Assembly (NCBI GenBank): GCA_045645265.1 | Contig: JAZRIM010000006.1 | Location: forward strand, 2,000 to 65,999 | DNA from: Candidatus Onthomorpha sp. | GTDB lineage: Bacteria; Bacteroidota; Bacteroidia; Bacteroidales; P3 | Length of the DNA stretch: 64,000 nucleotides | Direction of reading: 5' to 3' | Shown here: one piece after another, positions 3,001 through 62,452 of the stretch | Layout of the letters: each line of letters begins with the position of its first letter | Numbering within the stretch: position 1 is the first letter of the stretch | Notes under the pieces: model-generated | The model's input: the letters and a program-made list of their open reading frames with translations, nothing else | Told to the model about the DNA's origin: nothing | The model's database searches: none | Program-made: the position numbers and the translations under genes

Positions 3001-4888
3001 CGTTTGAATTAGAAGTTGTTGTATCAACTGTCACAGGAAGTCCACTACCAGAAGAAATACCACTCCAATAATAATATTCATATCCTCCATTTACATTATA
3101 CCAACAATGCAAAGAAGTTTTGTTTGCTCTTGCTGAATCTTGGATTGAGATGAATCCATTTACATCAAAGTTTTCTACGTATGGATATTCTGAAATAGTG
3201 TTACAAGTTGTCCAATCTGTGAAAGTAGAAGAAGTAACTGCTAATTCACTTCCGCCACAATTTGCTGTTACTTTATAATCTACTCTTGAAGAATAAGGCA
3301 AATCAGTTACAGCAATAGGACTTGTTCCTTCTACTTGATACCAAGTAGTATCGCCTGCATATCTATAAGAAACAATATATTCTGCATCTTCGTTCAATTC
3401 GTCTGTTACTTCAACATTCATAGTTACGCTACCACCAGCGTCTTCCATTGTTGTAGTAAATTCATTAACTCTTGCACAAGATGTAGAGAAAATGTAAAGA
3501 TTATCAATTGAAGCAGGAGGGTTTTCTCCAAGACTAGTATCGTTTTTCCAAGAAATTACTAATTGATAAGCTCCTCTTGGCATATCATTAGGAACAGGTA
3601 TTGTAACTCTTGTCCACTCATTGGATTTATCATTAGATCTTCCTATCACATTTGCAGCAGGAATTGAGTTTGTAGTAGGAAGAGCTGCTCCAAGAGGGAA
3701 TAAAGACACGACTACTTCGTCATAACCTAATTCTCCTACGGCTTTGTAATCAAATTCAACGCCATAATATGTATCATCTTCTAAATTTATGAGAGTAGAA
3801 AGGTGTGCAACATGAGCATCTCCATCAGGATCATAAGCATTAGTTACTCCATTGTCGTTACTAATGTAAAGACCTTGTCCTTCTTCACCTTCTTCTGCGT
3901 GAGCACCCAAAGCACCTAAGTACCATTGAGTTGTTCCGCTTTGAGTAACTGTCCATAATTCCCAACTTGACAAATCTTCCAAATCATCAAAGTTTTGTTC
4001 GTATGGAATAGGTATCATTTGATCTTCGGTTGGTAAAGTCCAAAAGTCTATTGATCTTTCACCACTGTTTTCTGCATCGCATACTGTCCAAACTTTTACT
4101 TGATAGTGTGCGTAAGAATCAAGACCTGTTAGAGTGTAAGATAAGTCTGTTATGTTTTCACTTGCAGTAGTCCATTCTTCTTCATCTACTGTTTTATATG
4201 CCAAACCGAAAGTAGTATTATTTTCGTTCATCGCTTCCCAGTTTATTGTTACTCCTGTTTGTTCTAAATCAGAGTAAGATAAGTTTTGAGGAGGATAACA
4301 AAAATCATCTCCCAAAGATTCCATTTCAAATTTTACTACAGGAGCACCTGTAACAGTTGCTGTAGCTGATGGATGCGTTGTAATAAAATATTCTTCATTA
4401 TCATCATAATCATAAACTGCTGAACCAACTGTTGCTTTTTTCCAAGAAACACTTCCGCCCCAAGAAGTCCCGTCTCTTATGACAGCAACAAGCAAATTAC
4501 CTCCTCCCGTATAAATAAAAGGAGTTGTTAATTCAAAAGTATTTCTTCCTGACACAATGTTTGCAGGACCTGTATATACTTCTGTAAAATCAGAACCTAC
4601 AACAAAACTTGTAATGGAAGATTGATCTACCTCTTTCATGTAAATCTTTATAGTTCCGTTATTATAGCCGCTGTATGATTGGTAATAACTGATACTTGTA
4701 ATAATACCAGGCATCAATTCACTTGCCGGATAAAGAGATTCGGTAAATGAATTTTCATAAGTCGTGTACAACGGTACATAACTATTTGTTGTTGATGTTG
4801 TCGAGTCTCCAACCATTACCGTGAAGGATTGAGCCGACAATTGCATAGCAAAAATGATTGCCATTGCAAAAAGTAATAATCTTTTCAT
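1..4888 (-). CDS. Giant secreted multidomain surface protein, 5' portion only (about 1629 codons; the C-terminus lies left of the window); paralog of 5159-11488
   Basis: Absent from the ORF track because it is edge-truncated. My minus-strand translation from ATG 4888 gives MKRLLLFAMAIIFAMQLSAQ/SFTVMVGDS, a signal peptide. The same frame at 58->2 reads TSVDVTNLTPTSATVNWVD, an FN3-type pattern. No closed minus-strand ORFs are listed in this frame, so it appears open throughout. Confidence 0.8.
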   Translation of the reverse strand, partial: MKRLLLFAMAIIFAMQLSAQSFTVMVGDSTTSTTNSYVPLYTTYENSFTESLYPASELMPGIITSISYYQSYSGYNNGTIKIYMKEVDQSSITSFVVGSDFTEVYTGPANIVSGRNTFELTTPFIYTGGGNLLVAVIRDGTSWGGSVSWKKATVGSAVYDYDDNEEYFITTHPSATATVTGAPVVKFEMESLGDDFCYPPQNLSYSDLEQTGVTINWEAMNENNTTFGLAYKTVDEEEWTTASENITDLSYTLTGLDSYAHYQVKVWTVCDAENSGERSIDFWTLPTEDQMIPIPYEQNFDDLEDLSSWELWTVTQSGTTQWYLGALGAHAEEGEEGQGLYISNDNGVTNAYDPDGDAHVAHLSTLINLEDDTYYGVEFDYKAVGELGYDEVVVSLFPLGAALPTTNSIPAANVIGRSNDKSNEWTRVTIPVPNDMPRGAYQLVISWKNDTSLGENPPASIDNLYIFSTSCARVNEFTTTMEDAGGSVTMNVEVTDELNEDAEYIVSYRYAGDTTWYQVEGTSPIAVTDLPYSSRVDYKVTANCGGSELAVTSSTFTDWTTCNTISEYPYVENFDVNGFISIQDSARANKTSLHCWYNVNGGYEYYYWSGISSGSGLPVTVDTTTSNSNALYFSGTSSSSSTDNFSDWMISPVFEMTGNDRLNFQYKTSSTTNAPVIDVYVLDVNETDYSAMADTANFTLLTSINASGLATSTWHMAEVFLNEYSGNIRLALAVRQPSSTFYIDNFTISEIPDCPDVHGLVVTPGYQTAYVSYNTANIGEDGVTLAYAEIAEGEEFDPESAQTVSISAEETLPFIIEELTTGSTYAFAAQQACGGAWTTPVTITMPIMYPLPASFDFDTEETTPQMQYTQTTVNAWAVGTAENNTVDEYGDPTGGGALYISNDNGQTVGYNSSTYTSGSYVAIPFAFDPAAEINISFDWKCQGDYSSPTTTSPYDYMQVFIAPYGQSLSSGQAISAKLFASSQWQTTSIALPGSEYAGGYNLIFKWYNDYSGTDGIPGVVDNVVVVANSCTSTSLETTVAFVETEESETGGVFVVNMTDDVNTDVTYVLRYKESANSEWTEIPELTIDDFPYTINGINFQTIYNVQTGVMCQDAETPFYATQINVNTPCQSLQTPWFEDFENSNMFNSPSCWNRYSGAIPASGQINTSALTSTTSGWSVGTRSFSGNTTKKLIANIYSSYKYWAVSPTIDLGDGSTILQVAFDLAVTDYYNSNPPEEPSPDDKFMLLVSLDNGASWNVANGLVFADGDEDTEHNFADLTNVLQRYAYKLVDENDEPLTGQVRFAIYGESTVSNADNDVIVDNLVVEPWSECPMPYGLSVSGIQSSQATVSYTTWGPATTWEYAVAEADENGEADLDGADAVQIITNDPITVTELNPNTDYVFGIRSICEGDVASPWATATFTTLPAAEMVPYSTSLDDPDDLSTWTIISNATNNVWAMGTATAADDGGSAVYVSNDGGETYGATLGTSTSRSFFYKDFTFGEEPQDYELSFDWKATGRINEQASVYCGIMVYLLDIAPISTSSNPSSTYRKAIVYGSEEWKNEKVILSQVSGDKRLVFLTWGYTNEAELTTPAAIDNITIDFPTCTPPDITSVDVTNLTPTSATVNWVD

Positions 4889-4930
4889 ACTTTTATTATT
4901 TTGTTAATACTAAAATTATTTTTCAAGCGC

Positions 4931-4961
4931 CAAATTTATAACTTTTTTTCCAACCAACAAA
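4931..4961 (-). promoter_or_regulatory. Bacteroidota-type promoter for the 4888 gene
   Basis: The minus strand reads TTTG (4961-4958), 19 nt, TAAATTTG (4938-4931). This matches TTTG-N19-21-TAnnTTTG and lies about 40 nt upstream of the ATG. Confidence 0.6.
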
Positions 4962-5033
4962 TTTTTAAAAAGAAATTTTAACCCCTCTTATTTGTAAAAA
5001 TATATTTATGTAAGAAAAAGAGAGAAAAAAAAG

Positions 5034-5104
5034 CAAAGAAAAAATTAAAAAAATCAAAGAAAAAAATTAATAAAGCAAAGAAATATTTTTCTAAAACAAA
5101 GAAA
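5034..5104 (-). repeat. Array of four 21-bp-phased units (core CAAAGAA on plus, TTCTTTG on minus)
   Basis: Cores start at 5034, 5055, 5076 and 5097, exactly 21 bp apart. The array lies upstream of the 4931-4961 promoter and points toward it. Confidence 0.8.
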
Positions 5105-5134
5105 AAAAAGAGCGACTCTATAAAGAATCGCTCT
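5102..5134 (-). terminator. Rho-independent terminator of the 5159-11488 gene
   Basis: Stem AGAGCGA (5109-5115) / TCGCTCT (5128-5134) with a 12-nt loop. On the minus strand it is followed by a T8 run (A-run 5102-5109 on plus). It sits 25 nt past the stop codon. Confidence 0.75.
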
Positions 5135-5158
5135 TTTAGGTTATTTGATTGTTAAATG

Positions 5159-8100
5159 TTATTCAACTATCAATTTTTGTGTGCTTACGGCTTTGTCAGT
5201 TACTATTCTTATGTAGTAAACTCCGCTTGCCATATTGCTAACATTGATTGTGTAACGGCTTGTGCCTGCACTGATTTCTTCTTGACTTAGGATTCTTCCT
5301 TGTAAGTCGCTAATTACTATCTTAGCATCTTGGTCTAATCCTACGATTTCCATTGTTGCATTGTCTTGTGCTGGATTTGGATATAGGCTTACTTGTAAGC
5401 TGTTTGCTAATTCGTCTGCCAAGCCTGATAGTGTAAAGGTTTCTACTGCTCCGTATGCTGTGCCTGCTTCGTTTGTGATGTATGCACGATAGAAGTATGT
5501 TTGTCCTTCTACTAAGTCATTAACTGTTGCTGTGAATGCACTTTCTGAAAGTGTTGAAGTGATGTTTTGAACTTCTGCTGTTTCAAGTGTGAAGTCTGCA
5601 ACGGTTGCTAATGCAAAGCCTACTGTGAAGTTTTCTGATTCGCCTGCATTTACTAAGGCTCCGTTTAGGGTTGCACTTGTGTTTCCTACGTTAGTTGCTG
5701 GCGATGTTGTTACTTCTCCTAATACTATCACAATTGGAGCTGCTATTGTTGTGAAGTTTGTGCTTACCCAATCAGATGTTTGGTCTTCGCATATTGATCT
5801 TACTTCTACTGTGTAAGCTGTGTTTTCTGTTAAGCCTGTTAATGTTTTTGTAGTTGTTGTAAGGGTTTCTGCTTCGCCTCCGTTTAATTTGAATTCGTAT
5901 GTTGTGGCTGTGCCATTCCATGTGATTTCTGCTGAGGTTTCTGTTATATTGCTTGCTGTTAAATCTGTTGGTGCATCGCATGGCTCTGGTGCTGGTGCAA
6001 GTGTTGTAAAGGTTGTTGAAACCCAATCAGATGTTTGTTCTTCGCATACTGCTCTTACTTCTACTGTGTAGGCTGTGTTTGCTGTTAAGCCTGTTAATGA
6101 TTTTGTTGTAGTTGTAAGTGTTTCTGCTTCGCCACCGTTTACTTTTAGTTCGTATGTTGAGGCTGTACCTGTCCATGTGATTTCAGCTGTTGTTTCTGTT
6201 ATGTTGCTTGCTGAAAGTGCTGTTGGTGCATCACATGGTGCTGGTTCAAGTGTTATGAAGCTTACGCTTACCCAATCAGATGTTTGGTCATCACATACTG
6301 CTCTTACTTCTACTGTATAAGATGCACTTGGATTTAAGTTTGTTAATGTTTTGCTTGTAGTTGTAAGTGATTCTACTGCTCCTGCATTTACTCTTAATTC
6401 GTATGTGTCTGATGCTCCTGTCCATGTGATTTCAGCTGTTGTTGCTGTAACGTTTGTTGCTGTAACGTTTGTTGGTGCTTCGCATGGAATAACCATAAGT
6501 GTTGTGAATTGGATTGAATCCCATTCTGAACGGTTTGCTGCATTACATACTGATCTTACATAAACTGTGTAAGTTGTGTTTGGTGTTAAGTTGTCGAATT
6601 GATAGTATGGAATTGTAGAATTTTCTATTATTCCATTTTCTCCAAGTCTTACTTCCCAACCACATTCACTGCCGTTTGAAGTCCATGATAGGATTGCAGA
6701 ATTTGCTGTAATGTTTTCTTCTTCTATTAACAATGCTGTTGGTTGAACGCAAGGTGAGCTTTCGCCTGCTAAGTTTACTTCAAAGTTATCTAAGAATATA
6801 TTAACATCTGAGCTTCCAGAAAGTGTTGAGGTATATATTCCTATTTTGATTCTGCCTGATAATGGAGTGCCATTTGCATCTTGTAACAACATTGTTTTTC
6901 TTGATAATGATGTTGTAATATCAGTAAGGTTGTGTTCTGTGTCTGCATCTGCATTTGCAAAGATAATTGCATTTGCACTTGACCAAGTTAATCCGTCATC
7001 TGTAGAAACTACTACTGCTATTTTGTCATCATCTTCAAATGTTATTGTATTCATATTATTATAGTCACGTGCTGCAATGTCAAATGAGAATTGATAAAGT
7101 TGAGTGTTTGTATCTCCTAAATCTATGCTTGGTGTAACCATCCATTTGTGTTTATTGCTTCCCCATAGATTGTAATACATTTTGTTTGTTCCGTTATAGT
7201 CAATAGATACACCATTTATTGTCCAAACGTAGTCTGTTGTGTATTCAAGATTTATGTTTTCTGTTAATTCTCCGTTTGCATAGTACCAACAATTTGATGA
7301 GTTGTATGTGCCAGATTCAAATCCTTCTGTCCAAGGTGCTGTTAGGCTTGCACAAGGTGTGTTGAATGTTGTGCTAACAAACATTGATGATTCTGTTGCT
7401 GAGCAAAGTGTTTTTACTCTTACATCATATTCTGCTCCTGCATTTAATCCTGTTAAAACATAAGGGTTTGTTATCTCGCTAACACTTGTCCAAGTTGATT
7501 CTGAACGTAATTTGTATTCTAATAGGTAGTTTGCTCCTTGATTTATTGTGTCGGTAAAGCTTATTGTTGCTTGCATTCCGTCAGTGCCTTCTGATGCAAT
7601 TGCTGTAAGGTCTGATATTTCAAAGCATGTACGTAATGAAACAGATATATTATCTACTGCTATTGCTGGGTTAGTTGCTGTCATATTATCATTGTACCAT
7701 AAGAATACTAATTGATAAACTGAATTAGCGTACTCTTGTCCTAAGATAATAGTTTCTCTTGTCCAGTCGTCTGATTGTTGATATTTACTTTCTCCTATTT
7801 TGTGTGAAGAATATGTTGATGTTGGAAGACTTGCTCCAAGAGGTAATAGATATACTTCCATATAATCATAGTAGTATTCGCCTCTTCCTTTCCAATCAAA
7901 AGACAATTCCCAAGATAGGTCATTTTCAAATGCTAAGAATGTGCTAAGTGTTGATATGGTAGTGGTATAACCATTGTATTCATTTGTTGCTCCGTTGTCG
8001 CTACTTACATAGAACGCTCCTCCTGTTGTTAAGTTGCCTGCTTCATCTGTTGTGTTGTTTGCAACTATACCATGACACCATTTATTTAATGAACCAGCGT

Positions 8101-11100
8101 ATGCAGAATTTGGTGCTACTACTGACCATTCTGTTATTGTTGCAACATTGTCAAAGTCTTCTGTGTATGGAACTGCATTTACTATTGGTATGAATAGGTT
8201 TACAGGATTGCTCCAATATGCTCCCTCACAGTTTTGTTTTACTGCTATTGTGTAGTTTCCTCCATCAACGTCTGTTGCTATTGTGTAAGGGAATGTTGCT
8301 CCTGATGCTATTGTGATTTGTGTTGCTGTTTCTGGGTTGAAGTTTGCTGAAGCTGGTGCGTATGCTACTATCCAACCGTTTTCTGCTCCTAATGTGTCAA
8401 ATGTTACTACGATAGAAGAACCATCAGGTGTAGTTGCTGCTAATCCGTGTACATCTGGACAAGGAGGGGCTTGATTGATTCTTAAATTGTCAATGTAGAA
8501 TCTAGCTGCATTATGACGAATTGCAAATGCTAAACGTGCAGTTGTTTCTACGTTTGATAAGATTATTTCTTTTTCGCTCCAAGCAGAACCTGCAATAGTA
8601 ACGCTTGTAAGATATGTAGCGTTTGCTGTGTCTGCTCTTGAAGTTAAATCGTTTTCTGAAACATCTAATGCAAATATGTCTAAGGTTACTTCTCTTTCCC
8701 AACCATAGTATAATGCTGTTTCAAATTGAAGTCTTTGTTCTCCGTCAAATTCAAATGCTGGTGTGAATATCCATTCGCTAACAAAAGGTCTGCTGTCTCC
8801 GTAAGAGTCTCCGTTGTATGCTAATGCGTATCTGTCTCCGTCATTTGATGCTTCGTCTGCTTCTTGACGTGTTGTTGACCATTTGTAGTTTGATTCTGAT
8901 GATAGGTTTATCCAACAAAGTGGTCCAGATATTCCTATGCCTGTTCCTGTAAATATTCCAGAGAATGAGTTTGTGTAAGGTAATTCTTGAACTGCTGCAC
9001 AGTTTGTGATAAAGCTGCCACTTACATAATCTGTCATATTGCCATCACATAATGCTGCAACTCTATATTCGTATTCTGTTCCTAATTCAAGTCCTGTTAA
9101 TGTGTATGATAATTCTGTTGATGTTTCAGTTTGCCATTCATCTGCTGAAACAGGTTTGTATTCTATTTGGTATGTTGTTTCAGTTGGGTTAGATGATGTG
9201 ATGTTGATTATCATTTCACTTGGGTTTTCTGTTCTTTGATAAGCAATGCTTGCTGGTGCTATACAAGATAATGAGGTTATTGATAGGTTGTCTATTGCTG
9301 CAGGAGGAGGGTTTCCGTTTGAATAGTCATTTCTCCACATAAATACTAATTTTTGCATAGTACCTAATCTACCTGCTGCATCTAATGTAATGTTTTTTGT
9401 ATTCCAGTTTGTGCTACCGTTTAAATTACCAGTAATTGCATATCTGCTTGCTGGTTCATTTCCATGTGATAATTCATATTCAACAGGAACCATATATACT
9501 TTTAAATAGTCATAAGCAGTTCCTTCTCCATAGCACTTCCAATCAAATGAAATGCGGAACGCTACTGAACCATCTGTTGGGAAAGCTACAAGTGTTGTAA
9601 AATAGTTTCTTGATTCAACATTTGTAGTGTAAGCATTTGTCATTCCTCCATCATTACTGATGTAGATTGCTCCACCTTCTCCCTCAGGATTGTTTGTTGC
9701 ACTTCCGTGTGTCCAAGCGTTTATTGTTCCATTTACGAATTGTGCTTCTGGTGCGTTTCCTATTTCATTATAGTTTTGAGTGAAAGGAGCTACTGCTACT
9801 GTTCCTGCTTGAGGTAGAGTTACTGCAATAGGTTCTGAAAATTCTCCATCACAATTTTGTTTTGCTGCTAAATAATATGTTGCCCCTGGTGTTAGGCCTT
9901 GTATTAGATAAGGGAACTCTGCAGCATCATTGATTGTAATAGTTTCTGCTGTTGCAGGGTTAAAGTTTTGTATTGAATCTGCTGTTCCGTAAGCAACAAC
10001 CCAACCACTTCCTTCGTGGTTTAATGTGTTTAAGTTTACTTGAATTGCATCTACGTTAGAAACAATTGCGTTGAATCCATAAACATCTGGACATTCTACT
10101 TCTTCTATTGTTACTTGTGGGATGTAGAATGAAGGGTTAGCTGTTTTGTTTACAAATGCTATTCTTGCTGTGTTTTCTACGTTTGTTAATAATACTTGGA
10201 ATGTTTCTCCTGATGGTGTGTTTTCATCAGATAATACTGTTGCTAAATATGTGAAGTTTGTTGTATCTGCCTCTGATGTAACGTCTCCGTTTGTAACGTC
10301 TAAGTAATATATATCAAAAGTTACTCTATCTGAGGCGTTGTCTTTATCTATTGAGAATGTTACTGCTTCTGTTCCTGTAAATTCCATTGCAGGGAACATT
10401 AACCAATCGCTATTTGATATTGATTCAGAAGTAGAGAAGTAACCCATAAGCGAACTTCTTGTTGCAACTCCTCCCCAACGATAAGTAGCGTTTCCTCCAT
10501 TTACATTTATCCAGCAGTGATGAGGAACTGTTCCTCCTATTGAGCCTTGAACAAAGTTTGTTGCAAAGTCTTCTGACCAAGGGAATGTTTCTACCGGTGT
10601 ACATGCTGTATTGAAACTTGCAAATGTAGGGAATGATTGTGAGTCTTCTCCACAGTTTGCTACAACTTGTACTTCATATACTGTTGAAGAAGTTAATCCT
10701 GTTATTTCATAAATTGTGTCGCTTGTTGTTCCTAATGTAGTAAATGATTCTTCACCTGGTAATCTGTATGAAACTGTGAAGGTTGTTCCTTCGCCATTAG
10801 GATTTGACCAAGAAGCAGTTGTTGAAACTTGGTCTGTATTAGAGAATGCCAAGTTTTGAACAGGTAAACAAACTGATGATCCTTCTGGTAGTCTTGTAAA
10901 TATTGCAGAAGGTACTAATGTTGTAGTATAAACTCCTGCTGGATCTTCTGGTGTTACTGCTCTTGAATCTCTTGCAGTGTATAAAGTACGAATAGCAGGT
11001 GTTGCGTATTCTGCACCCATACCCCAAGCAGTTGAATAGAAGTATTGTCCCATACTTGCTCTTACTGCTACTACAAGATTGTTTGCTCCTGTGTAAACGT

Positions 11101-11488
11101 AAGGAATTTGAAAATCTACATTATGCCAACCTGTTCCTGAAATGGTTAATGAACCTGTGTAAACAGATGTAAAGTTTGGAGTAAGCAATAATGTACTGCT
11201 TTCAAATGCTTGTGTAGAAGTTTCGCCAATAAGCACTTCTATCTCAAATGTACGTGTACCTGCTGTATTTTCTGCAAGATACCAACTTATACCAGAAAGA
11301 ATACCTGGTGTAAGCTCTGATGATAGGTAAATACTTTGAGAATAAGAATAGTTAAATCCTGTTTGAATCAATGCTGTTGATTGATTCGTGTTAGGAAAAG
11401 CTACTGTGTCTCTCAAAGATTCTTCTTGGGCTTTAAGCCCTATGACAACACATAGTGCCATAATTACTAAAAGAAATCTTTTCTTCAT
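5159..11488 (-). CDS. Giant T9SS-secreted surface protein (2109 aa) with FN3 and beta-sandwich supermodules and a type-A C-terminal sorting domain
   Basis: The ORF track gives 2125 aa. I move the start to ATG 11488 (MKKRFLLVIMALCVVIGLKAQ signal peptide) because TTG 11536 sits at the predicted TSS of the -7 box at 11542-11549. About 2.5 copies of a ~540-aa supermodule are present: FN3, a PWSEDF-type jelly roll, an FN3-like domain, and an ISNDGG...FDWK...DY beta-sandwich. These are followed by four tandem FN3 domains. The C-terminus LYPNPA...GVYYIRI...KLIVE is typical of a T9SS CTD (about 5162-5404). Confidence 0.9.
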   Translation of the reverse strand: MKKRFLLVIMALCVVIGLKAQEESLRDTVAFPNTNQSTALIQTGFNYSYSQSIYLSSELTPGILSGISWYLAENTAGTRTFEIEVLIGETSTQAFESSTLLLTPNFTSVYTGSLTISGTGWHNVDFQIPYVYTGANNLVVAVRASMGQYFYSTAWGMGAEYATPAIRTLYTARDSRAVTPEDPAGVYTTTLVPSAIFTRLPEGSSVCLPVQNLAFSNTDQVSTTASWSNPNGEGTTFTVSYRLPGEESFTTLGTTSDTIYEITGLTSSTVYEVQVVANCGEDSQSFPTFASFNTACTPVETFPWSEDFATNFVQGSIGGTVPHHCWINVNGGNATYRWGGVATRSSLMGYFSTSESISNSDWLMFPAMEFTGTEAVTFSIDKDNASDRVTFDIYYLDVTNGDVTSEADTTNFTYLATVLSDENTPSGETFQVLLTNVENTARIAFVNKTANPSFYIPQVTIEEVECPDVYGFNAIVSNVDAIQVNLNTLNHEGSGWVVAYGTADSIQNFNPATAETITINDAAEFPYLIQGLTPGATYYLAAKQNCDGEFSEPIAVTLPQAGTVAVAPFTQNYNEIGNAPEAQFVNGTINAWTHGSATNNPEGEGGAIYISNDGGMTNAYTTNVESRNYFTTLVAFPTDGSVAFRISFDWKCYGEGTAYDYLKVYMVPVEYELSHGNEPASRYAITGNLNGSTNWNTKNITLDAAGRLGTMQKLVFMWRNDYSNGNPPPAAIDNLSITSLSCIAPASIAYQRTENPSEMIINITSSNPTETTYQIEYKPVSADEWQTETSTELSYTLTGLELGTEYEYRVAALCDGNMTDYVSGSFITNCAAVQELPYTNSFSGIFTGTGIGISGPLCWINLSSESNYKWSTTRQEADEASNDGDRYALAYNGDSYGDSRPFVSEWIFTPAFEFDGEQRLQFETALYYGWEREVTLDIFALDVSENDLTSRADTANATYLTSVTIAGSAWSEKEIILSNVETTARLAFAIRHNAARFYIDNLRINQAPPCPDVHGLAATTPDGSSIVVTFDTLGAENGWIVAYAPASANFNPETATQITIASGATFPYTIATDVDGGNYTIAVKQNCEGAYWSNPVNLFIPIVNAVPYTEDFDNVATITEWSVVAPNSAYAGSLNKWCHGIVANNTTDEAGNLTTGGAFYVSSDNGATNEYNGYTTTISTLSTFLAFENDLSWELSFDWKGRGEYYYDYMEVYLLPLGASLPTSTYSSHKIGESKYQQSDDWTRETIILGQEYANSVYQLVFLWYNDNMTATNPAIAVDNISVSLRTCFEISDLTAIASEGTDGMQATISFTDTINQGANYLLEYKLRSESTWTSVSEITNPYVLTGLNAGAEYDVRVKTLCSATESSMFVSTTFNTPCASLTAPWTEGFESGTYNSSNCWYYANGELTENINLEYTTDYVWTINGVSIDYNGTNKMYYNLWGSNKHKWMVTPSIDLGDTNTQLYQFSFDIAARDYNNMNTITFEDDDKIAVVVSTDDGLTWSSANAIIFANADADTEHNLTDITTSLSRKTMLLQDANGTPLSGRIKIGIYTSTLSGSSDVNIFLDNFEVNLAGESSPCVQPTALLIEEENITANSAILSWTSNGSECGWEVRLGENGIIENSTIPYYQFDNLTPNTTYTVYVRSVCNAANRSEWDSIQFTTLMVIPCEAPTNVTATNVTATTAEITWTGASDTYELRVNAGAVESLTTTSKTLTNLNPSASYTVEVRAVCDDQTSDWVSVSFITLEPAPCDAPTALSASNITETTAEITWTGTASTYELKVNGGEAETLTTTTKSLTGLTANTAYTVEVRAVCEEQTSDWVSTTFTTLAPAPEPCDAPTDLTASNITETSAEITWNGTATTYEFKLNGGEAETLTTTTKTLTGLTENTAYTVEVRSICEDQTSDWVSTNFTTIAAPIVIVLGEVTTSPATNVGNTSATLNGALVNAGESENFTVGFALATVADFTLETAEVQNITSTLSESAFTATVNDLVEGQTYFYRAYITNEAGTAYGAVETFTLSGLADELANSLQVSLYPNPAQDNATMEIVGLDQDAKIVISDLQGRILSQEEISAGTSRYTINVSNMASGVYYIRIVTDKAVSTQKLIVE
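5735..6487 (-). repeat. Three tandem FN3-coding units (249/255/249 bp) of high DNA similarity; a fourth, more diverged unit extends to about 6751
   Basis: Protein units PC(D/E)APT...AEITW.G...YE(L/F)(K/R)(V/L)N.G..E(S/T)LTTT.K(T/S)LT.L...(A/S)YTVEVR..C..QTSDWVS. The repeat also shows up as three similar spurious plus-strand ORFs (5820-6071, 6075-6320, 6351-6563). Confidence 0.9.
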
Positions 11489-11541
11489 TTTTTTACTTAT
11501 AAATTTATAATTAAACTTTATTTTCTCAAAAAACAAAGTTG

Positions 11542-18090: not shown

Positions 18091-19143
18091 ATGAAAAAAA
18101 TAATAATCAGTCTGTTTATACTCCTATTTAGCAATAGTATATGCCTTTGTCAAAAATCCGACTCAATACTAAACAACGCTATATACCTAATAGACAAAGG
18201 CGAATTAGTAGAAGCAGAAAATAAAATAAAACAAGCAATATCAGAAGGCATAGACACACTACCCCTACACTATGAATTAGCTTGGATATACTACATAATG
18301 ACAGACTACGACAAAGCAATAGAAACCCTAACCCCACTTTGTCAAAGAGCAGAAGTCACACCTGATGTTTATCAATTATTAGGCAATGCCTATGACGAAA
18401 AAGGACAATTCAATTCCGCCATAACACAATACGACAAAGGCCTAAAAAAATTTCCAAACGCAGGTTGTCTATATCTTGAAAAAGGAAACATATCCTATAA
18501 GAATAACCGATACGAAGACGCCTTCTTTTACTACGAAAAAGGCATAGAATCAGATCCCGAATACGCATCTAACTATTATAGAGCCTCTCTCCTATTTTTT
18601 GCATCTACCGAAATGGTATGGGGAGCAATGTACGGAGAAATATTTATGAATCTTGAACAACATTCCGAAGACAGATGTAAAGAAATGAGTAAAACACTTT
18701 ACGACTGTTACTTTGACCAAATAAAATTTGAAAACAGAAAAGCCGAAGTAGATTTCAACAATCCTGTGATAGTTTACTCTAACTCAGAAGAAAGACCAAA
18801 TCTCTTTCCAGAAAGTTTTCGTTCAGCAATGACAAAAGCAGCAAAAGGATATAGATTTCTTGATTTAAACACACTTGTTCAAATAAGAAAGAAATTCATA
18901 ACCGAGTTTTATGCAAATTTCTCCGACTTTAACAACGTTTTGTTTGACTATCACAAAAAGATAATAGAAGCAGGACACTTTGAAGCCTACAACTATTGGC
19001 TATTTGCATACGGCAACAACGCACAAGCAAACAAATGGGTAAAAGAAAATCAAGGAAAATGGGATGCATTCTTAAAATGGAAGAAAGAAAACCCAATAAA
19101 AATAACCCAAGAAAACGTATTCTCACGCTATACAATGGAATAA
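18091..19143 (+). CDS. TPR-repeat protein with signal peptide
   Basis: The start is moved to ATG 18091 (MKKIIISLFILLFSNSICLCQ). Several 34-aa TPR-like repeats are present (YELAWIYY..DYDKAIE, YQLLGNAYDEKGQFNSAITQYDKGLK, etc.). Confidence 0.7.
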   Translation: MKKIIISLFILLFSNSICLCQKSDSILNNAIYLIDKGELVEAENKIKQAISEGIDTLPLHYELAWIYYIMTDYDKAIETLTPLCQRAEVTPDVYQLLGNAYDEKGQFNSAITQYDKGLKKFPNAGCLYLEKGNISYKNNRYEDAFFYYEKGIESDPEYASNYYRASLLFFASTEMVWGAMYGEIFMNLEQHSEDRCKEMSKTLYDCYFDQIKFENRKAEVDFNNPVIVYSNSEERPNLFPESFRSAMTKAAKGYRFLDLNTLVQIRKKFITEFYANFSDFNNVLFDYHKKIIEAGHFEAYNYWLFAYGNNAQANKWVKENQGKWDAFLKWKKENPIKITQENVFSRYTME

Positions 19144-19150
19144 AAAAAAC

Positions 19151-19197
19151 AAAACGCTCGTTTGTCAAAACAAAACAAAGACTCACGAGCGTTTTTT
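19151..19197. terminator. Bidirectional hairpin terminator, copy A of a 55-bp repeated element
   Basis: AAAACGCTCGT (19151-19161) / ACGAGCGTTTT (19185-19195) with a 23-nt loop, A-run on the left and T-run on the right. Nearly identical to 44411-44459. Confidence 0.7.
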
Positions 19198-19221
19198 AAA
19201 CATATAGTCAATCAAACATTA

Positions 19222-20229
19222 CTATTCTATGGTTTTCTTTAGAAGAGGAATTACCCTTATAAGTTTTGTTGTATATAGACTTAAAATAAAAATTACAATA
19301 GAAATTAACGGCAACGTAATTACATGATTGCACAAATCTCTTAACATCGGTATATTTATAACTAAAAGCCACAATCCATGAACAAGATATATTCCAAAAA
19401 GATCTTTTCGTACATATTCTATAAATGCAATTACTTTATTTTCAATTTTTGGAGTTATTTGTTTGATCAGCACAAATAATGCCAATGACATCGCAACAAC
19501 AGGGATTCCCAAATAATTCATAAATATTACATTACCAACACCTGTTATACATGACATTAACAACACTCCTCCAACACAAATACTAGCACCAACAATTCCT
19601 ATTCCATAGATCCATTTTAATTGTTTTCTAGTTATTGTATAATTACTTAAATAATATCCCAGTAAAAAATAACCTGAAAATCCTAAAATAGAATTAGTGT
19701 TGAAAATAATCCCTATTTGTGGGATCAAGTCAAATCTACAGAAACAACCTATTAGATATATAATCCACAATATAAGCGTTGAGTGCATTAAATTCCTATC
19801 ATTAGCAATTTTTCGCAGTATTGGTATCAATAAATACACACCTATTATCATTGGAATATACCAAAGATGAAAATGAGGAAAAAACAAACCAATACTTAAT
19901 TCTTGTCCAAGAATAATATATTCATACATAATGTAAACTATGTTCCAGAAAGCATAAGCTAATATTAGCCTTGGAATATATTTTTTGATTAAAATATTGT
20001 ACGATACTTCTTTTGTTGATTGTAAAAAAAGAGCACCACTAATCATTACAAATAATGGCACACACCACCTAACTAAACAATCTCCAATAGCAGATACGAA
20101 CCAATTGTAAGAGCCTACATTAGTAAAAAAACCAGTAGCAAATACATGAAGTGCAATTACCCCTAACGTAGCAACAACTCTAATTAAATCAAGGTAAACT
20201 AAACGTTTCTTTTTTTTTATAGTAGTCAT
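19222..20229 (-). CDS. Acyltransferase family 3 (OafA/Oac-like integral membrane O-acyltransferase), cassette A
   Basis: 335 aa, about 10 predicted TM helices. N-terminal R..YLDLIRV.A...V...H motif typical of AT3. Confidence 0.8.
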   Translation of the reverse strand: MTTIKKKKRLVYLDLIRVVATLGVIALHVFATGFFTNVGSYNWFVSAIGDCLVRWCVPLFVMISGALFLQSTKEVSYNILIKKYIPRLILAYAFWNIVYIMYEYIILGQELSIGLFFPHFHLWYIPMIIGVYLLIPILRKIANDRNLMHSTLILWIIYLIGCFCRFDLIPQIGIIFNTNSILGFSGYFLLGYYLSNYTITRKQLKWIYGIGIVGASICVGGVLLMSCITGVGNVIFMNYLGIPVVAMSLALFVLIKQITPKIENKVIAFIEYVRKDLFGIYLVHGLWLLVINIPMLRDLCNHVITLPLISIVIFILSLYTTKLIRVIPLLKKTIE

Positions 20230-20257
20230 AATTTTTCGTTAATAATTTTTCAAACCA

Positions 20258-20749
20258 CAAAGGTAAAACAAATTTTTAAAAGCACAAAAAACTTGCGAAT
20301 AAATTCTTAATTTTCCAAGTTCAAGAATCAGAGAAATAAACTTTATTTTACAGAAATTTCATTTTGGGATTTTTGCAAAAATTCTTGCGAAAAATTGACG
20401 AAAATTGGGGTAAATTTTTCGCAGATTTGGAGTTTTTTTACGAAAAGCTCGTTTAGAATTTTCTAAAGCAGGGATAGAAATTTCTAAATCAAGGATAGAA
20501 AAAATTAAATCAAGTTTTTTTTGAAAAAATCAAAGAAAAAATTGAAAAAAACAGCGAAAAATTTGGCAAAATCAAAGACTTTTTGGGCAAAAATCGGGCT
20601 TCAAAAAATTAAGTCATTGATTTTGTGATTTTTAGTCAAGGGCTTATTTTTAAAAAATTTGCAATAAGAAATCTTAAAGTTGAAAATATCGCAAGCATTT
20701 GGGCTTAACTCTTGGGGAAAGTTTTTTATTTTCTCTTTTCATTAAAGGC
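20258..20749 (-). repeat. ~490-bp intergenic repeat, copy A (A-tract block, 21-bp units, inverted repeat); includes the -7 box TACCTTTG at 20258-20265
   Basis: Aligns without large gaps to 45918-46410 at a constant offset of 25660. By eye roughly 90-95 percent identical over 20361-20749. 21-bp unit cores start at 20468, 20489, 20510, 20530, 20551 and 20572. Confidence 0.9.
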
Positions 20750-26445: not shown

Positions 26446-27531
26446 CTATAACATCTTTAAGAAATTGATTTCTTTTTCAGTTAAAAATCTACATCTTCCT
26501 CTTGGCAAATCTTTCTTTGTCAATCCTGCAAAACTTACTCTATCCAATTTCTCAACATAGTAACCCATAGCCTCAAACATACGTCTTACGATTCTATTCT
26601 TACCACTATGAAGTTCTACTCCTACAACTTTTTTGTCGTTGTAATATTCTACAAATTGAATATCGTCAAATCTTGCAAAGCCGTCTTCCAATTCTATTCC
26701 GTCAAGCAAAGATTGCATATCGTTTTTTGTAAGAGGCTTGTTCAATTCTACGTGATAGATTTTTCTTGCACCAAAAGAAGGGTGTGTAAGCTTCTTTGTC
26801 ATATCTCCATCGTTAGTAAAAAGCAACAAACCTGTTGTATTTCTATCTAAACGGCCGACAGGATAAATTCTTTCTGTGCAAGCCTTTTCTACAAGACTCA
26901 TTACAGTTTTTCTTTCTTGCGGATCGTCAAGCGTAGTTATGAATCCTTTTGGTTTATTAAGCAAAAGATAGACTTTTTTCTCATGTGAGAGTCTTTCTCC
27001 GTCATAACAAACAACATCAGAGGTAGAAACTTTAACTCCCATTTGAGTTACTACCTTTCCATTCACCGTTACAGCTCCCGAAGCAATCAAAACATCTGCC
27101 TCTCTTCTTGAACAAACACCAGAATTTGCAATAAACCTATTTAAACGTATGTCTTTATCAAGAGTTTTTATAGGCTTTTCACTATATGTATTTCTTTCAC
27201 GCTCAAATCTCTTTGGCTCTCTATCGAAAGTCTTTTCCTTGCGAGAAAATCTCTCTCTCTTGTCTGAAAATCTTTCTTTCTTATCGGAAAAACGTTCTCT
27301 CTTATCTGAAAATTTCTCCTTTTTGTCAGAGAAGCGTTCTGCTTTTTCAAACGATTGTATTCTCTTTCTCTTAAACTCTCTTGGAGCTTGCTCGCTATCT
27401 CTTTCAAATTTTTTTGAAAAAGGCTTTCTCTCTTCTCTTTTCTCTTTGTTAAAGCCCCCCTTTTGAGGTCTTTTCCAATCTCTATTTTCGTTTCTTCTTT
27501 CCATTTCTATAACTTTTACCGATATTCCCAT
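26446..27531 (-). CDS. rluB: 23S rRNA pseudouridine synthase, RluB/RsuA family, with a basic repeat extension
   Basis: S4 domain (IRLNRFIANSGVCSRREADVLI) and the catalytic motif PVGRLDRNTTGLLL. The start is uncertain: ATG 27531 or ATG 27504. The track's TTG 27612 lies upstream of the -7 box. Confidence 0.85.
   Translation of the reverse strand: MGISVKVIEMERRNENRDWKRPQKGGFNKEKREERKPFSKKFERDSEQAPREFKRKRIQSFEKAERFSDKKEKFSDKRERFSDKKERFSDKRERFSRKEKTFDREPKRFERERNTYSEKPIKTLDKDIRLNRFIANSGVCSRREADVLIASGAVTVNGKVVTQMGVKVSTSDVVCYDGERLSHEKKVYLLLNKPKGFITTLDDPQERKTVMSLVEKACTERIYPVGRLDRNTTGLLLFTNDGDMTKKLTHPSFGARKIYHVELNKPLTKNDMQSLLDGIELEDGFARFDDIQFVEYYNDKKVVGVELHSGKNRIVRRMFEAMGYYVEKLDRVSFAGLTKKDLPRGRCRFLTEKEINFLKML
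27184..27351 (-). repeat. Eight 21-bp coding repeats (basic heptads, F every 7th residue)
   Basis: AERFSDK KEKFSDK RERFSDK KERFSDK RERFSRK EKTFDRE PKRFERE RNTYSEK. Confidence 0.85.
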
Positions 27532-27552
27532 CGGGATAATTTTTGCAAACTG

Positions 27553-27560
27553 CAAAGATA
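27553..27560 (-). promoter_or_regulatory. -7 box TATCTTTG for the rluB operon
   Basis: Plus-strand CAAAGATA, 21 nt upstream of ATG 27531. Confidence 0.55.
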
Positions 27561-27677
27561 CAACAAAGAAATAAAAAGAGAAGAAAAAAACTAAAAGAAA
27601 AACAAAAAACAAAACGTTTTTACAGCATCGTTAAAATTTCAGTTCACAAGTGTAAAACGAAGTTTTAAGGTAAATAA

Positions 27678-28025
27678 CGTTTATTTTACGGAAATTTCAT
27701 TTTGAGAAAATTTCGAGTTCCTTGACCAAAATTGAGCGAAATCAAGTAACAAAATCGCTAAATTTGAACTTTCTTTCTTGAAAAGCTGATTTAATTTTAA
27801 AAAGTCAGCGTTTTTTTGAAATAAAACAAAGAAATAATTTCTTAAAATCAAGAATTATTTTTCTCAAATCAAGAAATAATCACACTAAAACAAAGAAAAA
27901 ATTAGCGTTTTTCTGACTTCAAAAAAGTTAAATTATTGATTTACTGCTTTTTAGTTAAGGGATTATATTTTCAATATTTGCAATCGGAAAATTTAGGCTT
28001 GAAAATATCACACGCATTCGGCGTT
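27678..28025 (-). repeat. Diverged third copy of the ~490-bp repeat family
   Basis: Shares these blocks with copies A and B in the same order: TTTATTTTACGGAAATTTCATTTTG, GAAAAGCT, four 21/22-bp units (cores at 27826, 27848, 27869, 27890), TTCAAAAAAGTTAA, and TTTAGTTAAGGG.TTAT...ATTTGCAATCGGAAA...TTGAAAATATC. Confidence 0.75.
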
Positions 28026-28125
28026 AAATTTATAGAAATTTTGTTTACATCCGAAAATTCGTGGCGATTCTGTTTTATATAAGTTAATAAAATAGAAAGA
28101 CTCTTTTGTTTGAGAATTTTTTTTG

Positions 28126-35523: not shown

Positions 35524-36204
35524 ATGAAAAAAACAGCGATTCTTTTAATTATTTCTTTGTTTGCGACAAATATTTCTTTGTTTTCGCAAAATAAAACAAA
35601 GACTTCTGGATTTGTTTCCACAACAAGTTTCACAATGGGATTTATTAGCAATTTTGAAGATTTGAATGCCTCTATCAAGTCTTACTATCCAGAATACAAA
35701 GACTTCAATCCAATAATGCAAACAGGTTTTACACTTGGTTTTGGCTATTATTTCAAAGACAGATTTTCTATTTTGACAGAAAGTTTTGCTTCCTCTGCTC
35801 CTTCTGTGAGCAGTCACGAAGACCAATATGCAGAACTACGAAGTTATGGCAGTAAATTAGAGATTTCTTATGTATTTTATAGAGTAAAAAACTTTGATTT
35901 TGAATTTTCTATTGGGCTTGGAGGACAATACAATAGTTTTTTGCATACCATAAAAAACAAAAACGAAGAATATGAACCTAAATTAGCCCTTACTTCCTTG
36001 AATACCGTTGTTCCACTTGGCTTTACTTGGTGGATATACAAAGAAAACGAGGCTCACATTGGCAATAGAGCAGTAGGAATTAGCCTTGACTATAATCTTA
36101 TTGCACACAAAGGGATCACAACCGTTACAGGTTTTACTCAAAAAGCACATTATCCAAACATATCAAGCAACAACCTTTGGATAAGTATTGTACTTAAAAT
36201 GTAA
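35524..36204 (+). CDS. Outer-membrane beta-barrel protein (hypothetical)
   Basis: Signal peptide MKKTAILLIISLFATNISLFSQ. Alternating beta-strand pattern. Confidence 0.55.
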   Translation: MKKTAILLIISLFATNISLFSQNKTKTSGFVSTTSFTMGFISNFEDLNASIKSYYPEYKDFNPIMQTGFTLGFGYYFKDRFSILTESFASSAPSVSSHEDQYAELRSYGSKLEISYVFYRVKNFDFEFSIGLGGQYNSFLHTIKNKNEEYEPKLALTSLNTVVPLGFTWWIYKENEAHIGNRAVGISLDYNLIAHKGITTVTGFTQKAHYPNISSNNLWISIVLKM

Positions 36205-44396: not shown

Positions 44397-44410
44397 AAAA
44401 ATAAAAAAAC

Positions 44411-44459
44411 AAAACGCTCGTTTGTCAAAATAAAACAAAGACTCACGAGCGTTTTTTTT
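44411..44459. terminator. Bidirectional hairpin terminator, copy B of the 55-bp repeated element
   Basis: Same arms as 19151-19195 (AAAACGCTCGT / ACGAGCGTTTT). The loop differs by one base. Confidence 0.7.
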
Positions 44460-45572: not shown

Positions 45573-45680
45573 AATAAAGAATATTTATTTTTACTAATTA
45601 TTACTTTACCCAAGTCCCAAAGGCGATTTACTAATTTGATTTCTTTGATTTATAGGCATAAAAAAACGTGGGACTTTTTT

Positions 45681-45816
45681 CTTATTGATTTCTCAAGGTT
45701 CTGGACTACCTAATCACTCAAACAAGAAAAGCCCACGATATACTCGTGAGCGCTCTCGGCTTATTCTTTGAGTGATTTTAATGAAATTGTCCAGATTTCA
45801 AGAAATCAAATATAAG
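45681..45816. other. 136-nt rod-like imperfect palindrome inside the cassette-B leader (candidate structured RNA or MITE-like insertion)
   Basis: Nested arms of 5, 8, 7, 11, 8 and 5 bp. See the finding at 45573-45917 for the sequences. Confidence 0.6.
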
Positions 45817-45917
45817 CAAAAACGCTATTTTATGTCGTAATAAAATTTTCTAAGTCTAAATTATTCTTCTTTTTCTCTTTTTTATTCTCCTTTTTTTATT
45901 GGTTAATAATTCGCCTA

Positions 45918-46410
45918 CAAAGGTATAACAAAATTTTTAAAGCACAAAAAAACATTAAAGAAACTCTTAATTTCATAATTCAAATTTTATAGATAAAAAT
46001 CTTTATTTTGAGAAAATTTCATTTTGGGATTTTTGTGAAAATTCTTGCGAAAAATTGACGAAAATTGGGATAAATTTTTCGCAGATTTGGAGTTTTTTTA
46101 CGAAAAGCTCGTTTAGAATTTTCTAAATCAGGGATAGAAATTTCTAAATCAAGGATAGAAAAAATTAAATCAAGGTTTTTTTTGAAAAAATCAAAGAAAA
46201 ATTTGAAAAAAACAGCGAAAAATTTGGCAAAATCAAAGACTTTTTTGGCGTTTTTAAGGCTTTAAAAAGTTAAGTCTTTGATTTTGTGGTTTTTAGTTAA
46301 GGGCTTATTTTTTAAAAATTTGCAATCAGAAATCTTAAAGTTGAAAATATCGCAAGCATTTGGGCTTAACTATTGGGGAAAGTTTTTTATTTTCTCTTTT
46401 CATCAAAGGC
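45918..46410 (-). repeat. ~490-bp intergenic repeat, copy B; includes the -7 box TACCTTTG at 45918-45925
   Basis: See copy A. 21-bp unit cores start at 46128, 46149, 46170, 46191, 46212 and 46233. The 14-bp inverted repeat is at 46229-46242 / 46272-46285. Confidence 0.9.
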
Positions 46411-46411
46411 A

Positions 46412-46455
46412 TTAAAAAAATAAAACGGCGATTCTAAATGATAGAACGCCGTTTT
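46412..46455 (-). terminator. Rho-independent terminator of pyrF
   Basis: AAAACGGCG (46422-46430) / CGCCGTTTT (46447-46455), followed on the minus strand by T7. Confidence 0.75.
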
Positions 46456-51409: not shown

Positions 51410-51414
51410 ATAAA

Positions 51415-51498
51415 AATCAGCAAATTATTTCTTTAAATCAGCAAATTATTTCTTTCATTTAAAAAATTATCTCTTTGAATTAAAAATTTTATTCTTTG
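51415..51498 (+). repeat. Four exact 21-bp units upstream of the UpxY promoter
   Basis: Units: AATCAGCAAATTATTTCTTTA / AATCAGCAAATTATTTCTTTC / ATTTAAAAAATTATCTCTTTG / AATTAAAAATTTTATTCTTTG. The C of each CTTT falls at 51431, 51452, 51473 and 51494. Confidence 0.85.
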
Positions 51499-52127: not shown

Positions 52128-52134
52128 AAATAAC

Positions 52135-52938: not shown

Positions 52939-52954
52939 TTAAAAAACAATAATC

Positions 52955-55369: not shown

Positions 55370-55383
55370 ACCTCTTACGACAC

Positions 55384-56067: not shown

Positions 56068-56130
56068 ATAAACGAGCGTTTAAAATAAATAAATGAATGT
56101 TTTAATTTAATAAGTGAGCGTTTTAATTTA
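56061..56130 (+). repeat. Three ~21-bp direct repeats carrying the hairpin half-site (C/T)GAGCGTTT
   Basis: AAATAAACGAGCGTTTAA / AAATAAATGAATGTTTTAA / TTAATAAGTGAGCGTTTTAA. GA(G/A)(C/T)G cores start at 56074, 56094 and 56116. Confidence 0.7.
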
Positions 56131-56134
56131 ACAA

Positions 56135-58060: not shown

Positions 58061-58064
58061 CTAT

Positions 58065-62080: not shown

Positions 62081-62452
62081 TGGAAAAGAAATATAGCAAA
62101 CACCCTTTTATTAAAATTGGCATTCTCGCAAGGGTTAGAGCAATAGAAGATTTAGGTAAATTATTTCTTTGACTTAGGAAATTATTTCTTAGGAATAAAA
62201 TATTAAATGATAAGTTTGAGAAAACATCTTCAAAAACAAAAAAAACTATACCTTTACTAATTGAATTTTTATAAAGAACAAAGGATAAAATCAAAGCCTT
62301 ACTCATCACATTCCAAAAGTCGTTTGCTTGGAACTTATGCCAACCGACATCTATGGGATAAAGGAGCGAGAGCATTCACTACAATATTTGCACAAGATTT
62401 GAAACATGTAATTGAAATTCAATAATACATCTGCAATAAGAATATATAAAAT

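Follow-up and report, generated by a model that had tools for sequence, protein, structure and literature searches.

Two acyltransferase cassettes with common flanks

The DNA analysed here, referred to below as the window, is a stretch of 64,000 nucleotides from Candidatus Onthomorpha sp. (contig JAZRIM010000006.1 of assembly GCA_045645265.1). It contains two genes of the Acyl_transf_3 (AT3) family, each preceded by the same upstream element of ~490 bp and followed by the same 55-nt hairpin. These units, denoted as cassettes A and B (Table 1), are probably two copies of a portable expression cassette; related loci in other assemblies are cited by number (L003 and so on).

The open reading frames (ORFs) of the window that were scanned against Pfam (n = 50) encode housekeeping, envelope or capsule functions. 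The two AT3 proteins score 104.6 (cargo A) and 99.4 bits (cargo B) with PF01757, for which the cut-off is 31, and share 25% identity (E 6e-4). Alignment of their upstream elements (20258-20749 with 45918-46410) gives 92.5% identity in 489 columns, and the hairpins agree at 54 of 55 bases (98%), the sole difference being one base of the loop. Sub-patterns taken from the conserved element and hairpin gave no match in any of 100 shuffled sequences. Cassette A lies between a TPR gene and the pair PAP2-obg, and cassette B between der-hslR (S4 domain) and pyrF. The G+C content of the cargo genes is 0.29-0.30 (0.287 for cargo A), compared with 0.34-0.40 in the neighbouring genes. No integrase, transposase or recombinase domain was found among the scanned ORFs.

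The paired hairpins with their coordinates, the common element, the divergence of the two proteins within one family, the neighbouring genes and the lack of an integrase or transposase had all been put forward in a preliminary description of this DNA, and are borne out here. Three features go beyond it: a third, diverged copy of the element (copy C), an additional leader of ~335 nt in cassette B, and a remnant of PAP2 within element B. Cassettes A and B are not independent of each other. Exact-sequence look-ups of the window proteins and of P0121 returned no match.

Table 1. Coordinates of the cassette features in the window.
Feature	Position	Strand	Basis or remark
Terminator hairpin, cassette A	19143..19197	strand-neutral	A-run, 11-bp stem, 13-nt loop, T-run; outer 3' end of cassette
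Cargo A, Acyl_transf_3 membrane acyltransferase, 335 aa	19222..20229	(-)	PF01757, E 7e-30
Promoter, cassette A, TTTG-N19-TAccTTTG, Bacteroidota sigma-A type (predicted)	20258..20288	(-)	sequence; kept in all copies
Element A, middle, about seven phased repeats of 21-22 bp	20330..20567	(-)	aligns with B and related loci
Element A, distal core	20567..20749	(-)	most conserved block; overlaps PAP2 stop codon
Element copy C, third and diverged	27640..28047	(-)	core, 21-bp repeats, weak TAcaCTTG box, short leader remnant
Terminator hairpin, cassette B	44403..44457	strand-neutral	fold; near-identity to hairpin A
Cargo B, Acyl_transf_3 acyltransferase, 354 aa	44508..45572	(-)	PF01757, E 3e-28
Structured 5' leader RNA, cassette B, ~335 nt between promoter and ATG	45573..45910	(-)	fold, covariance model, covariation
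Leader: purine-rich stretch, Shine-Dalgarno-like	45864-45897		
Leader: AGCGUUUUUGC box	45816-45826		
Leader: long hairpin P1-P4	45678-45832		
Leader: apical hairpin GCUCACGA-loop-UCGUGGGC, then UUUUCUUGUUUG	45719..45751	(-)	terminator scan; invariant in 95 distinct copies
Leader: GUCCCACG-U7-AUG box	45655-45676		pairs with UGGGACUU at 45609-45619
Leader: A-rich region before ATG			
Promoter, cassette B, TTTG-N19-TAccTTTG (predicted)	45918..45948	(-)	sequence; kept in all copies
Element B, middle, 21-bp phased palindromic repeats	45990..46228	(-)	aligns with A
Element B, distal core	46228..46410	(-)	last bases are a copy of the PAP2 3' end at cassette A

The upstream element and its promoter

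The distal core, of about 170 bp, is 80-90% identical across 42 copies, and in the alignment its outer boundary is sharp, directly after TTTATTTT. The repeat array that follows is ~240 bp long. In element A it has a conserved GAAATTTC block in addition to two palindromes, TAGAATTTTCTA and TAGAAATTTCTA; the repeat units vary between sub-families, yet hold palindromes such as TAGAAATTTCTA. The outer end of element B duplicates the last codons and the stop codon of PAP2 (GCCTTTGATG versus GCCTTTAATG). Copy C lies upstream of an rluB-like gene (26446-27612, minus strand), which matches PseudoU_synth_2 and S4; the N-terminal region of this gene (27238-27340) has tandem coding repeats of 21/42 bp.

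The sigma-A promoters of Bacteroidota consist of a -33 TTTG box and a -7 TAnnTTTG box, about 19-21 nt apart. Both cassettes have sequences that conform to this consensus and are predicted promoters. The motif TTTG-N19-TAccTTTG occurs in every clade of the leader described below, and 5' of it the sequences of distant clades are not related. What is widely conserved is thus the promoter with the leader, while the ~400 bp of core and repeats are specific to the lineage of the window. In cassette A the ATG follows the -7 box by only ~29 nt, which leaves this cassette without a structured leader. An invertible promoter was considered and rejected: the inverted repeats around it are weak, A/T-rich and 71-81% complementary, where repeats of 15-30 bp would be expected. 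The promoter is in the ON orientation in all copies.

The conservation of the core would be explained if it encoded a small RNA of ~65 nt, whose transcription would start at a weak internal promoter, lead away from the cargo and end at TTTATTTT. Near-consensus boxes are indeed present inside the core (TTTG-N19-TAtaTTTT and AAnnTTTGCAAT), there is a T-run at its boundary, and in L012 and L016 the terminator hairpin comes straight after it. We nevertheless give this explanation a low probability, as RNAalifold on the 42 copies finds covariation in support of a helix on neither strand, all four combinations occur among the candidate stems AAGC/GCTT and ACGC/GCGT, and Rfam has no match.

Both outer ends of the cassettes (19143-19160 and 20725-20740, and in other copies too) read approximately AAAAYAAAAAC inwards, a possible terminal inverted repeat of 10-11 nt; the candidate, AAAATAAAAC, is of low complexity and could be due to chance. 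The junctions examined gave no consistent sign of a target-site duplication.

Upstream of many unrelated genes there are also arrays made up of two to four repeats of ~21 bp, both in the genome of the window (5026-5083, 27822-27903, 35550-35593, 51414-51498, 56062-56138 and 62158-62205) and in its relatives (L131/L133, 5591-5660; L135, 5760-5860; L146, 4090-4160). Their spacing corresponds to two helical turns, and they often contain palindromes of the AGAAAT..ATTTCT type or TTTCTTTG units. Several synteny breakpoints adjoin such arrays, which may be sites for a global DNA-binding protein.

A structured leader RNA

The leader of cassette B has a predicted folding energy of -78.8 kcal/mol (z -5.25), and RNAalifold predicts a long hairpin from 101 distinct copies. 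A covariance model of the leader matches the window once (45678-45832; 158 bits, E 2e-34) and recovers 102 copies in 100 sources. In the model-based alignment, 96.4% of the cells at the 45 pairs are paired, and compensatory changes are present in 23 of these 45. Double changes affect 636 cells; the shuffles have 178±21 such cells and the slid controls no more than 67. A test that does not depend on the alignment gives the same picture: cognate 5' and 3' arms pair with -34.5 kcal/mol and non-cognate arms with -16.0 (p = 2e-59). Judged by covariation, the general test for such elements, the leader is a structured cis-regulatory RNA.

The apical stem (GCUCACGA/UCGUGGGC), like the sequence on either side, does not vary; it is followed by a U-rich tract, and a terminator scan flags the site. 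In its resemblance to an intrinsic terminator, this hairpin is a candidate attenuator. Near the 5' end of the leader, an invariant AGCGUUUU could pair with AAAACGCU, the complementary start of the apical stem, and so act as an anti-terminator; we infer this only, since invariant bases yield no covariation. Ahead of the A-rich start region, the conserved AAGUCCCACG-U7-AUG box pairs with UGGGACUU. Compensatory changes are seen in this P5 pairing (AAGUCCCA/UGGGACUU), with AAGUUCCA/UGGAACUU in L022 and L052. In another class of leaders, a segment is complementary to the region of the start codon.

Several further roles were considered and rejected. A conserved leader peptide is not found: the AUG after the U7 tract is kept, but the ORF is not, with Met-Pro-stop in 40 of 112 copies. 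Elsewhere among these 112 leaders the AUG opens MSFH, MSVR or longer unrelated peptides. The hairpin arms do not appear to be guides for the start region of the cargo, as cognate and non-cognate duplex energies are alike. Nor can the strand be read from G-U counts, because wobbles are equally frequent on both strands and the sense folds are just 3.5 kcal/mol more stable; the assignment is based on the promoter, the gene context and an invariant U·G/U-A pair.

The 5' part of the leader has a Shine-Dalgarno-like AAAGGAGG, with equivalents in about 20 loci. The ribosomes of Bacteroidota generally initiate without Shine-Dalgarno pairing, and such a stretch is hence unusual. An invariant ACCUCA in the internal loop between P1 and P2 could pair with it. 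L037 (4121-4787) has a tandem pair of leader copies upstream of a two-gene cargo; one copy is degenerate (44 bits).

The leader is absent from cassette A, L006 and L145, and copy C retains only a short remnant. The start codon of the cassette A gene (AT3_A) is at the position where other copies hold a mini-ORF at the start of the leader. At gathering thresholds, Rfam 15 reports a single tRNA in the whole window; with E values up to 10, region 45500-46450 gives only chance-level matches, all of 23 bits or less and far below the cut-offs. A covarying leader in ~100 distinct copies, without an Rfam family, is a well-supported RNA candidate and the most novel element of the finding.

The terminator hairpin

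On either strand, the hairpin has two stems, of 11 and 3 bp, that are separated by a 2x2 internal loop and capped by a loop of 13 nt. Its folding energy lies between -18 and -19.4 kcal/mol (z -4.3 to -5.9), and the stem is flanked by A7 on one side and T6-8 on the other. By these properties the hairpin is a putative bidirectional intrinsic (rho-independent) terminator. Its 13-nt loop and its internal loop are longer than is usual for terminators.

Distribution and cargo of the cassette

The core pattern matches three times in the window and at 18 loci in four related metagenome-assembled genomes (MAGs) of uncultured Bacteroidales. These loci are mostly 100-400 nt from the end of a contig, the signature of a repeat that breaks assemblies. 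BLAST places the hairpin and the additional segment of cassette B at many of the MAG loci, invariably in the same order. The genes driven by the element in the four MAGs encode small lipoproteins and a TolB-like one, WD40 proteins that carry signal peptides, proteins resembling outer-membrane barrels, and a BspA-type leucine-rich repeat (LRR) protein; no AT3 gene is among them.

The leader pattern was found in 120 instances on 112 metagenome contigs. The first ORFs behind it encode 110 distinct proteins, which fall into 53 unrelated clusters; 12 are BspA-type LRR proteins, about 8-10 are WD40/PD40 proteins and about five (~5%) are AT3 proteins. A hairpin in the right orientation is present downstream of 37 of the 67 leaders with enough sequence, at a median distance of 1.4 kb, and a core is present upstream of 27 of the 60 leaders with at least 800 nt of upstream sequence. 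The order and orientation of core, repeats, promoter, leader, cargo and hairpin are fixed across copies. Viral contigs gave no match to the core and leader patterns, and an association with phages is rejected.

The cassette thus exists in many copies as a bracketed unit of fixed order, and the cargo within it is interchangeable: at least 53 unrelated clusters share the modules. It is dispersed through the genomes of an uncultured lineage of animal-gut Bacteroidales, and its cargo is mostly secreted or envelope proteins.

It had been proposed that the flanks form a regulatory module for alternative surface O-acylation enzymes. The shared module stands, in that promoter, leader RNA and terminator are common to the copies; the link to AT3 genes and O-acylation fails in the face of the 53 unrelated clusters. 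A module dedicated to alternative surface O-acyltransferases would account for the two flanked genes in the window, and further AT3 cargoes are found in L030, L084, L085, L126 and L145-148 (those of L084, L085 and L126, behind the same leader, are 59-72% identical to cargo B). However, some 95% of the cargoes are not AT3 proteins, the copies in the MAGs drive the WD40, TolB-like, LRR and outer-membrane genes listed above, copy C precedes an rluB-like gene, and a third AT3 gene of the window (56135-57244; 125 bits with PF01757) has no cassette flanks. The census refutes this explanation, to which we attach next to no credence.

Insertion and movement of the cassettes

In a sister species (L136-L143; 23 contigs, including GCA_017647785.1), whose hslR is 89% identical, the hslR-PAP2 site is empty. 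The two genes have 11 nt of overlap at their 3' ends; the genes of the region are, in order, asparaginase, two DUF1573 genes, aminotransferase, der, hslR, PAP2, obg and adk. GCA_045644685.1 (L135) has a single cassette between hslR and PAP2, composed of hairpin, outer-membrane protein, TolB-like protein, leader and promoter. In UBA3388 (L003) the same cargo follows hslR and the gene on the far side is a different one. A closer relative, L144 (hslR 96% identical), has no cassette after hslR; in other relatives a capsule operon or an aldehyde dehydrogenase gene follows PAP2. The window itself has the arrangements aminotransferase-TPR-[cassette A]-PAP2-obg and der-hslR-[cassette B]-pyrF, 22 kb apart. 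Given the hslR-PAP2 order of the relatives, the junctions of hslR with the hairpin of cassette B and of the core with PAP2 at cassette A are the two ends of one ancestral insertion, both of which are held by the window cassettes. The PAP2 remnant in element B fits a copy or recombination event between the cassettes.

Orthologues of AT3_A, with 76% and 69% amino acid identity, are found at other loci inside the same type of cassette: in L145 the neighbours are tRNA genes and dtd, in L146-148 an ABC gene and purH. All of them have core, repeats, promoter and hairpin, and L146-148 also have the leader. The flanks of the AT3_A cassettes are 81-92% identical and the coding sequences 80-86%. AT3 orthologues lacking the flanks would have told against the preliminary description; those of AT3_A in other genomes keep them. 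Its further suggestion, that the flanks are bound to AT3 genes, is contradicted by the cargo census.

In L145 (2225-2440) the AT3_A-type cassette stands immediately downstream of two tRNA genes (tRNA-Gly and tRNA-Leu, by reading of the sequence); tRNA genes are a classic target of integration. Two further ideas were discarded. That the flanks are more conserved than the cargo is clearly so only for the hairpin (94-98%) and for the middle part in L147. Swapping of cargo at the locus of copy C is not supported either, since L014 and L037 have, in their right flank, genes that at the DNA level are no orthologues of the window gene.

The cassette is therefore an insertion relative to the empty hslR/PAP2 site. 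The same cargo and flanks occur at different loci, different cargo occurs at one locus, and the cassettes coincide with synteny breakpoints. Of the earlier idea of a recombination hot spot or cassette-exchange system, the first part holds, as conserved flanks round swapped cargo mark points of recombination or rearrangement; no cassette-exchange enzyme was found.

In another view, on which these observations also bear, the hairpin and the element of ~490 bp would be selfish or neutral intergenic repeats, each independent of the other and of the kind of REP sequences or miniature inverted-repeat transposable elements (MITEs), that bracket genes only incidentally. Both are multi-copy and both break assemblies; the right-hand part of the element is found without promoter in L012 and L016, the hairpin lies between ordinary convergent genes in L013, and the A-rich terminal repeat mentioned above, 10 nt and of low complexity, would suit such elements. 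The fixed order and orientation of the modules, the functional appearance of the promoter and of the covarying leader, and the recurrence of whole units with the same cargo at different loci make this view very unlikely.

A portable expression cassette

On balance we favour, with fair assurance, the reading that the AT3 genes are the cargo of two copies of a modular, portable expression cassette, and that such cassettes are exchanged and rearranged by way of their repeated flanks. On the sense strand of the cargo, a cassette comprises a ~170-bp core, ~240 bp of repeats, a promoter, an optional leader of ~335 nt, one to three cargo genes and the 55-nt hairpin. The flanks would supply any cargo with a ready promoter, a common post-transcriptional gate and transcriptional insulation. 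At the gate, the apical hairpin of the leader and its U-tract may work as an attenuator, and competing helices round the GUCCCACG box and the start region may set translation. As the flanks are shared, the scattered accessory envelope genes would be co-regulated. The repeated flanks would also offer homology for RecA-type recombination, which would swap cargo, duplicate cassettes and rearrange the chromosome.

Several points weigh against this. The promoter, attenuator and translational-gate roles are predictions from sequence and structure, and the more distant leader cassettes do not have the ~400 bp of core and repeats. Homologous recombination alone cannot explain the first insertion into a site without homology. 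The sharpness of both cassette ends and the direct contact of core and hairpin in L012 and L016 suit a discrete mobile unit better. Finally, the hairpin, including its loop, is almost fixed in sequence (44 copies in 41 related loci), whereas the stems of the leader drift freely. A plain terminator has no need of a fixed sequence, which is a hint that the sequence itself is recognised, perhaps by a recombinase or by an RNA-binding protein.

The main rival is consequently a site-specific cassette system, similar to integrons or to rAID-1, in which an unlinked recombinase recognises the hairpin and perhaps the end of the core. Whole cassettes would be excised and inserted as circles, with a joined core-hairpin junction (TTTATTTTAC-AACAAAACGCTCG). 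In addition to the fixed hairpin, the sharp ends and the contact in L012 and L016, such a system would be in keeping with the presence of the same cassette at unrelated loci, with the existence of an empty site, and with the small, secreted, defence-like, low-G+C cargo, which resembles that of integron and rAID arrays (bioRxiv 10.1101/471110). However, no recombinase is found among the 50 window ORFs, and none is evident beside the cassettes in long contigs, where the ORFs are partly typed. The hairpin is a simple perfect stem-loop with A/T runs, unlike the imperfect palindrome of attC; the cassettes are solitary, each with its own promoter and not in an array; and the junctions examined lack a consistent target-site duplication. 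We regard such a system as unlikely.

A bolder reading, which is tentative and somewhat improbable, is that the cassettes represent a new class of autonomous, promoter-bearing mobile cassettes, each with a dedicated structured leader RNA of ~155 nt that gates the expression of horizontally exchangeable envelope genes. The invariant hairpin would then have two functions, as terminator and as the sequence that an unlinked recombinase recognises. If true, the cassettes would be a functional counterpart of integrons, each having its own regulation.

If the favoured reading of a portable expression cassette is correct, this lineage of gut Bacteroidales plugs surface, envelope and defence-like accessory genes into its chromosome under uniform control, and the cassettes show how accessory genes get shuffled between strains. 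The cassette repeats explain contig breaks and synteny breakpoints in these MAGs. The set of promoter, leader and terminator could serve as a natural portable expression unit for the engineering of Bacteroidales.

Other features of the window

The region 1-11536 contains two very large ORFs on the minus strand, one at 5159-11536 (2125 aa) and one that runs off the left end. They share internal similarity, tandem coding repeats of ~255 bp are found at 5741-6499, and the two are probably a pair of repeat-rich surface proteins. A capsule-type operon (51582-57244) includes NusG/UpxY-like, Poly_export, Wzz/tyrosine-kinase-like and CpsB/CapC genes and the third Acyl_transf_3 gene; in the relatives L131, L132 and L134 the operon directly adjoins PAP2. 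The ORF at 59707-60327 has a Zeta-toxin domain (E 5e-15). Near glycoside hydrolase genes, a direct repeat of 128 nt (58063-58190 and 62451-62578) has copies that are 82% identical and 4.4 kb apart.

Comparison with known systems

No description of such cassettes or of this leader was found in the literature, and the cassettes are here compared with systems that share some of their features. An integron consists of the tyrosine recombinase IntI, an attI site, the promoter Pc and an array of promoterless cassettes. Its attC sites are imperfect palindromes with R''-L''/L'-R' boxes and extrahelical bases, in which structure and not sequence is conserved. The units described here are similarly discrete, with diverse and interchangeable cargo and a hairpin-forming site at the 3' end, and head-to-tail arrangement is possible. 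In contrast with integron cassettes, they have their own promoter and leader and are scattered singly between housekeeping genes, there being no recombinase in the 50 window ORFs; their hairpin has a perfect 11-bp stem and a 13-nt loop and is conserved in sequence in 44 copies.

In the rAID-1 system, a XerD-family recombinase heads a contiguous array in which orphan immunity genes are accompanied by short intergenic repeats (Ross et al., bioRxiv 10.1101/471110). It shares with the cassettes the Bacteroidales host, the low-G+C accessory genes and a repetitive intergenic sequence 'reminiscent of integrons'. The cassettes differ in being solitary units with flanks of 0.5-0.8 kb and mostly envelope cargo, and neither a recombinase nor an array is present in the window or in long contigs.

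The hairpin and element might also be likened to intergenic repeats and transposons. Correia, ERIC and REP repeats are 35-150 bp long, occur in near-identical copies and supply promoters, hairpins in 5' untranslated regions and terminators. Like the cassette modules they are multi-copy and intergenic, become incorporated in the transcripts next to them, give rise to long RNA hairpins and change expression or stability. Here, however, an ordered set of modules brackets a gene, and the arms of the leader vary between copies yet stay complementary, which indicates selection on structure. As for the features of MITEs and transposons, the ends are sharp, the sole candidate terminal inverted repeat is the low-complexity AAAATAAAAC, and the junctions examined have no consistent duplication.

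With riboswitch and attenuator leaders, the leader of cassette B shares its length, covarying helices, invariant loops, a terminator-like hairpin with U-tract and mutually exclusive helices near the start. It differs in that no junction resembling a ligand pocket is evident and no Rfam family exists; a metabolite linked to the gene product is unlikely, because the function of the cargo is unrelated between copies. The invertons of Bacteroidales likewise place shared promoter modules before variable surface or envelope genes (for context, PMC8748976, PMC7641763), whereas the cassettes have no convincing inverted repeats round the promoter and all of their promoters are ON.

The closest concept is that of mobile promoters, or promoter reuse. 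Putative mobile promoters are upstream regions that are closely similar although the genes behind them are not homologous, whether in one genome or in different ones (Nijveen, Matus-Garcia and van Passel 2012, PMC3575422). The same holds for the cassettes, whose homologous upstream regions stand before non-homologous genes and would offer ready-made regulation to acquired genes. The difference is one of size and composition: the unit described here is larger and bipartite, with a ~400-bp element, promoter, ~335-nt leader and terminator, and it is the whole bracketed unit that relocates.

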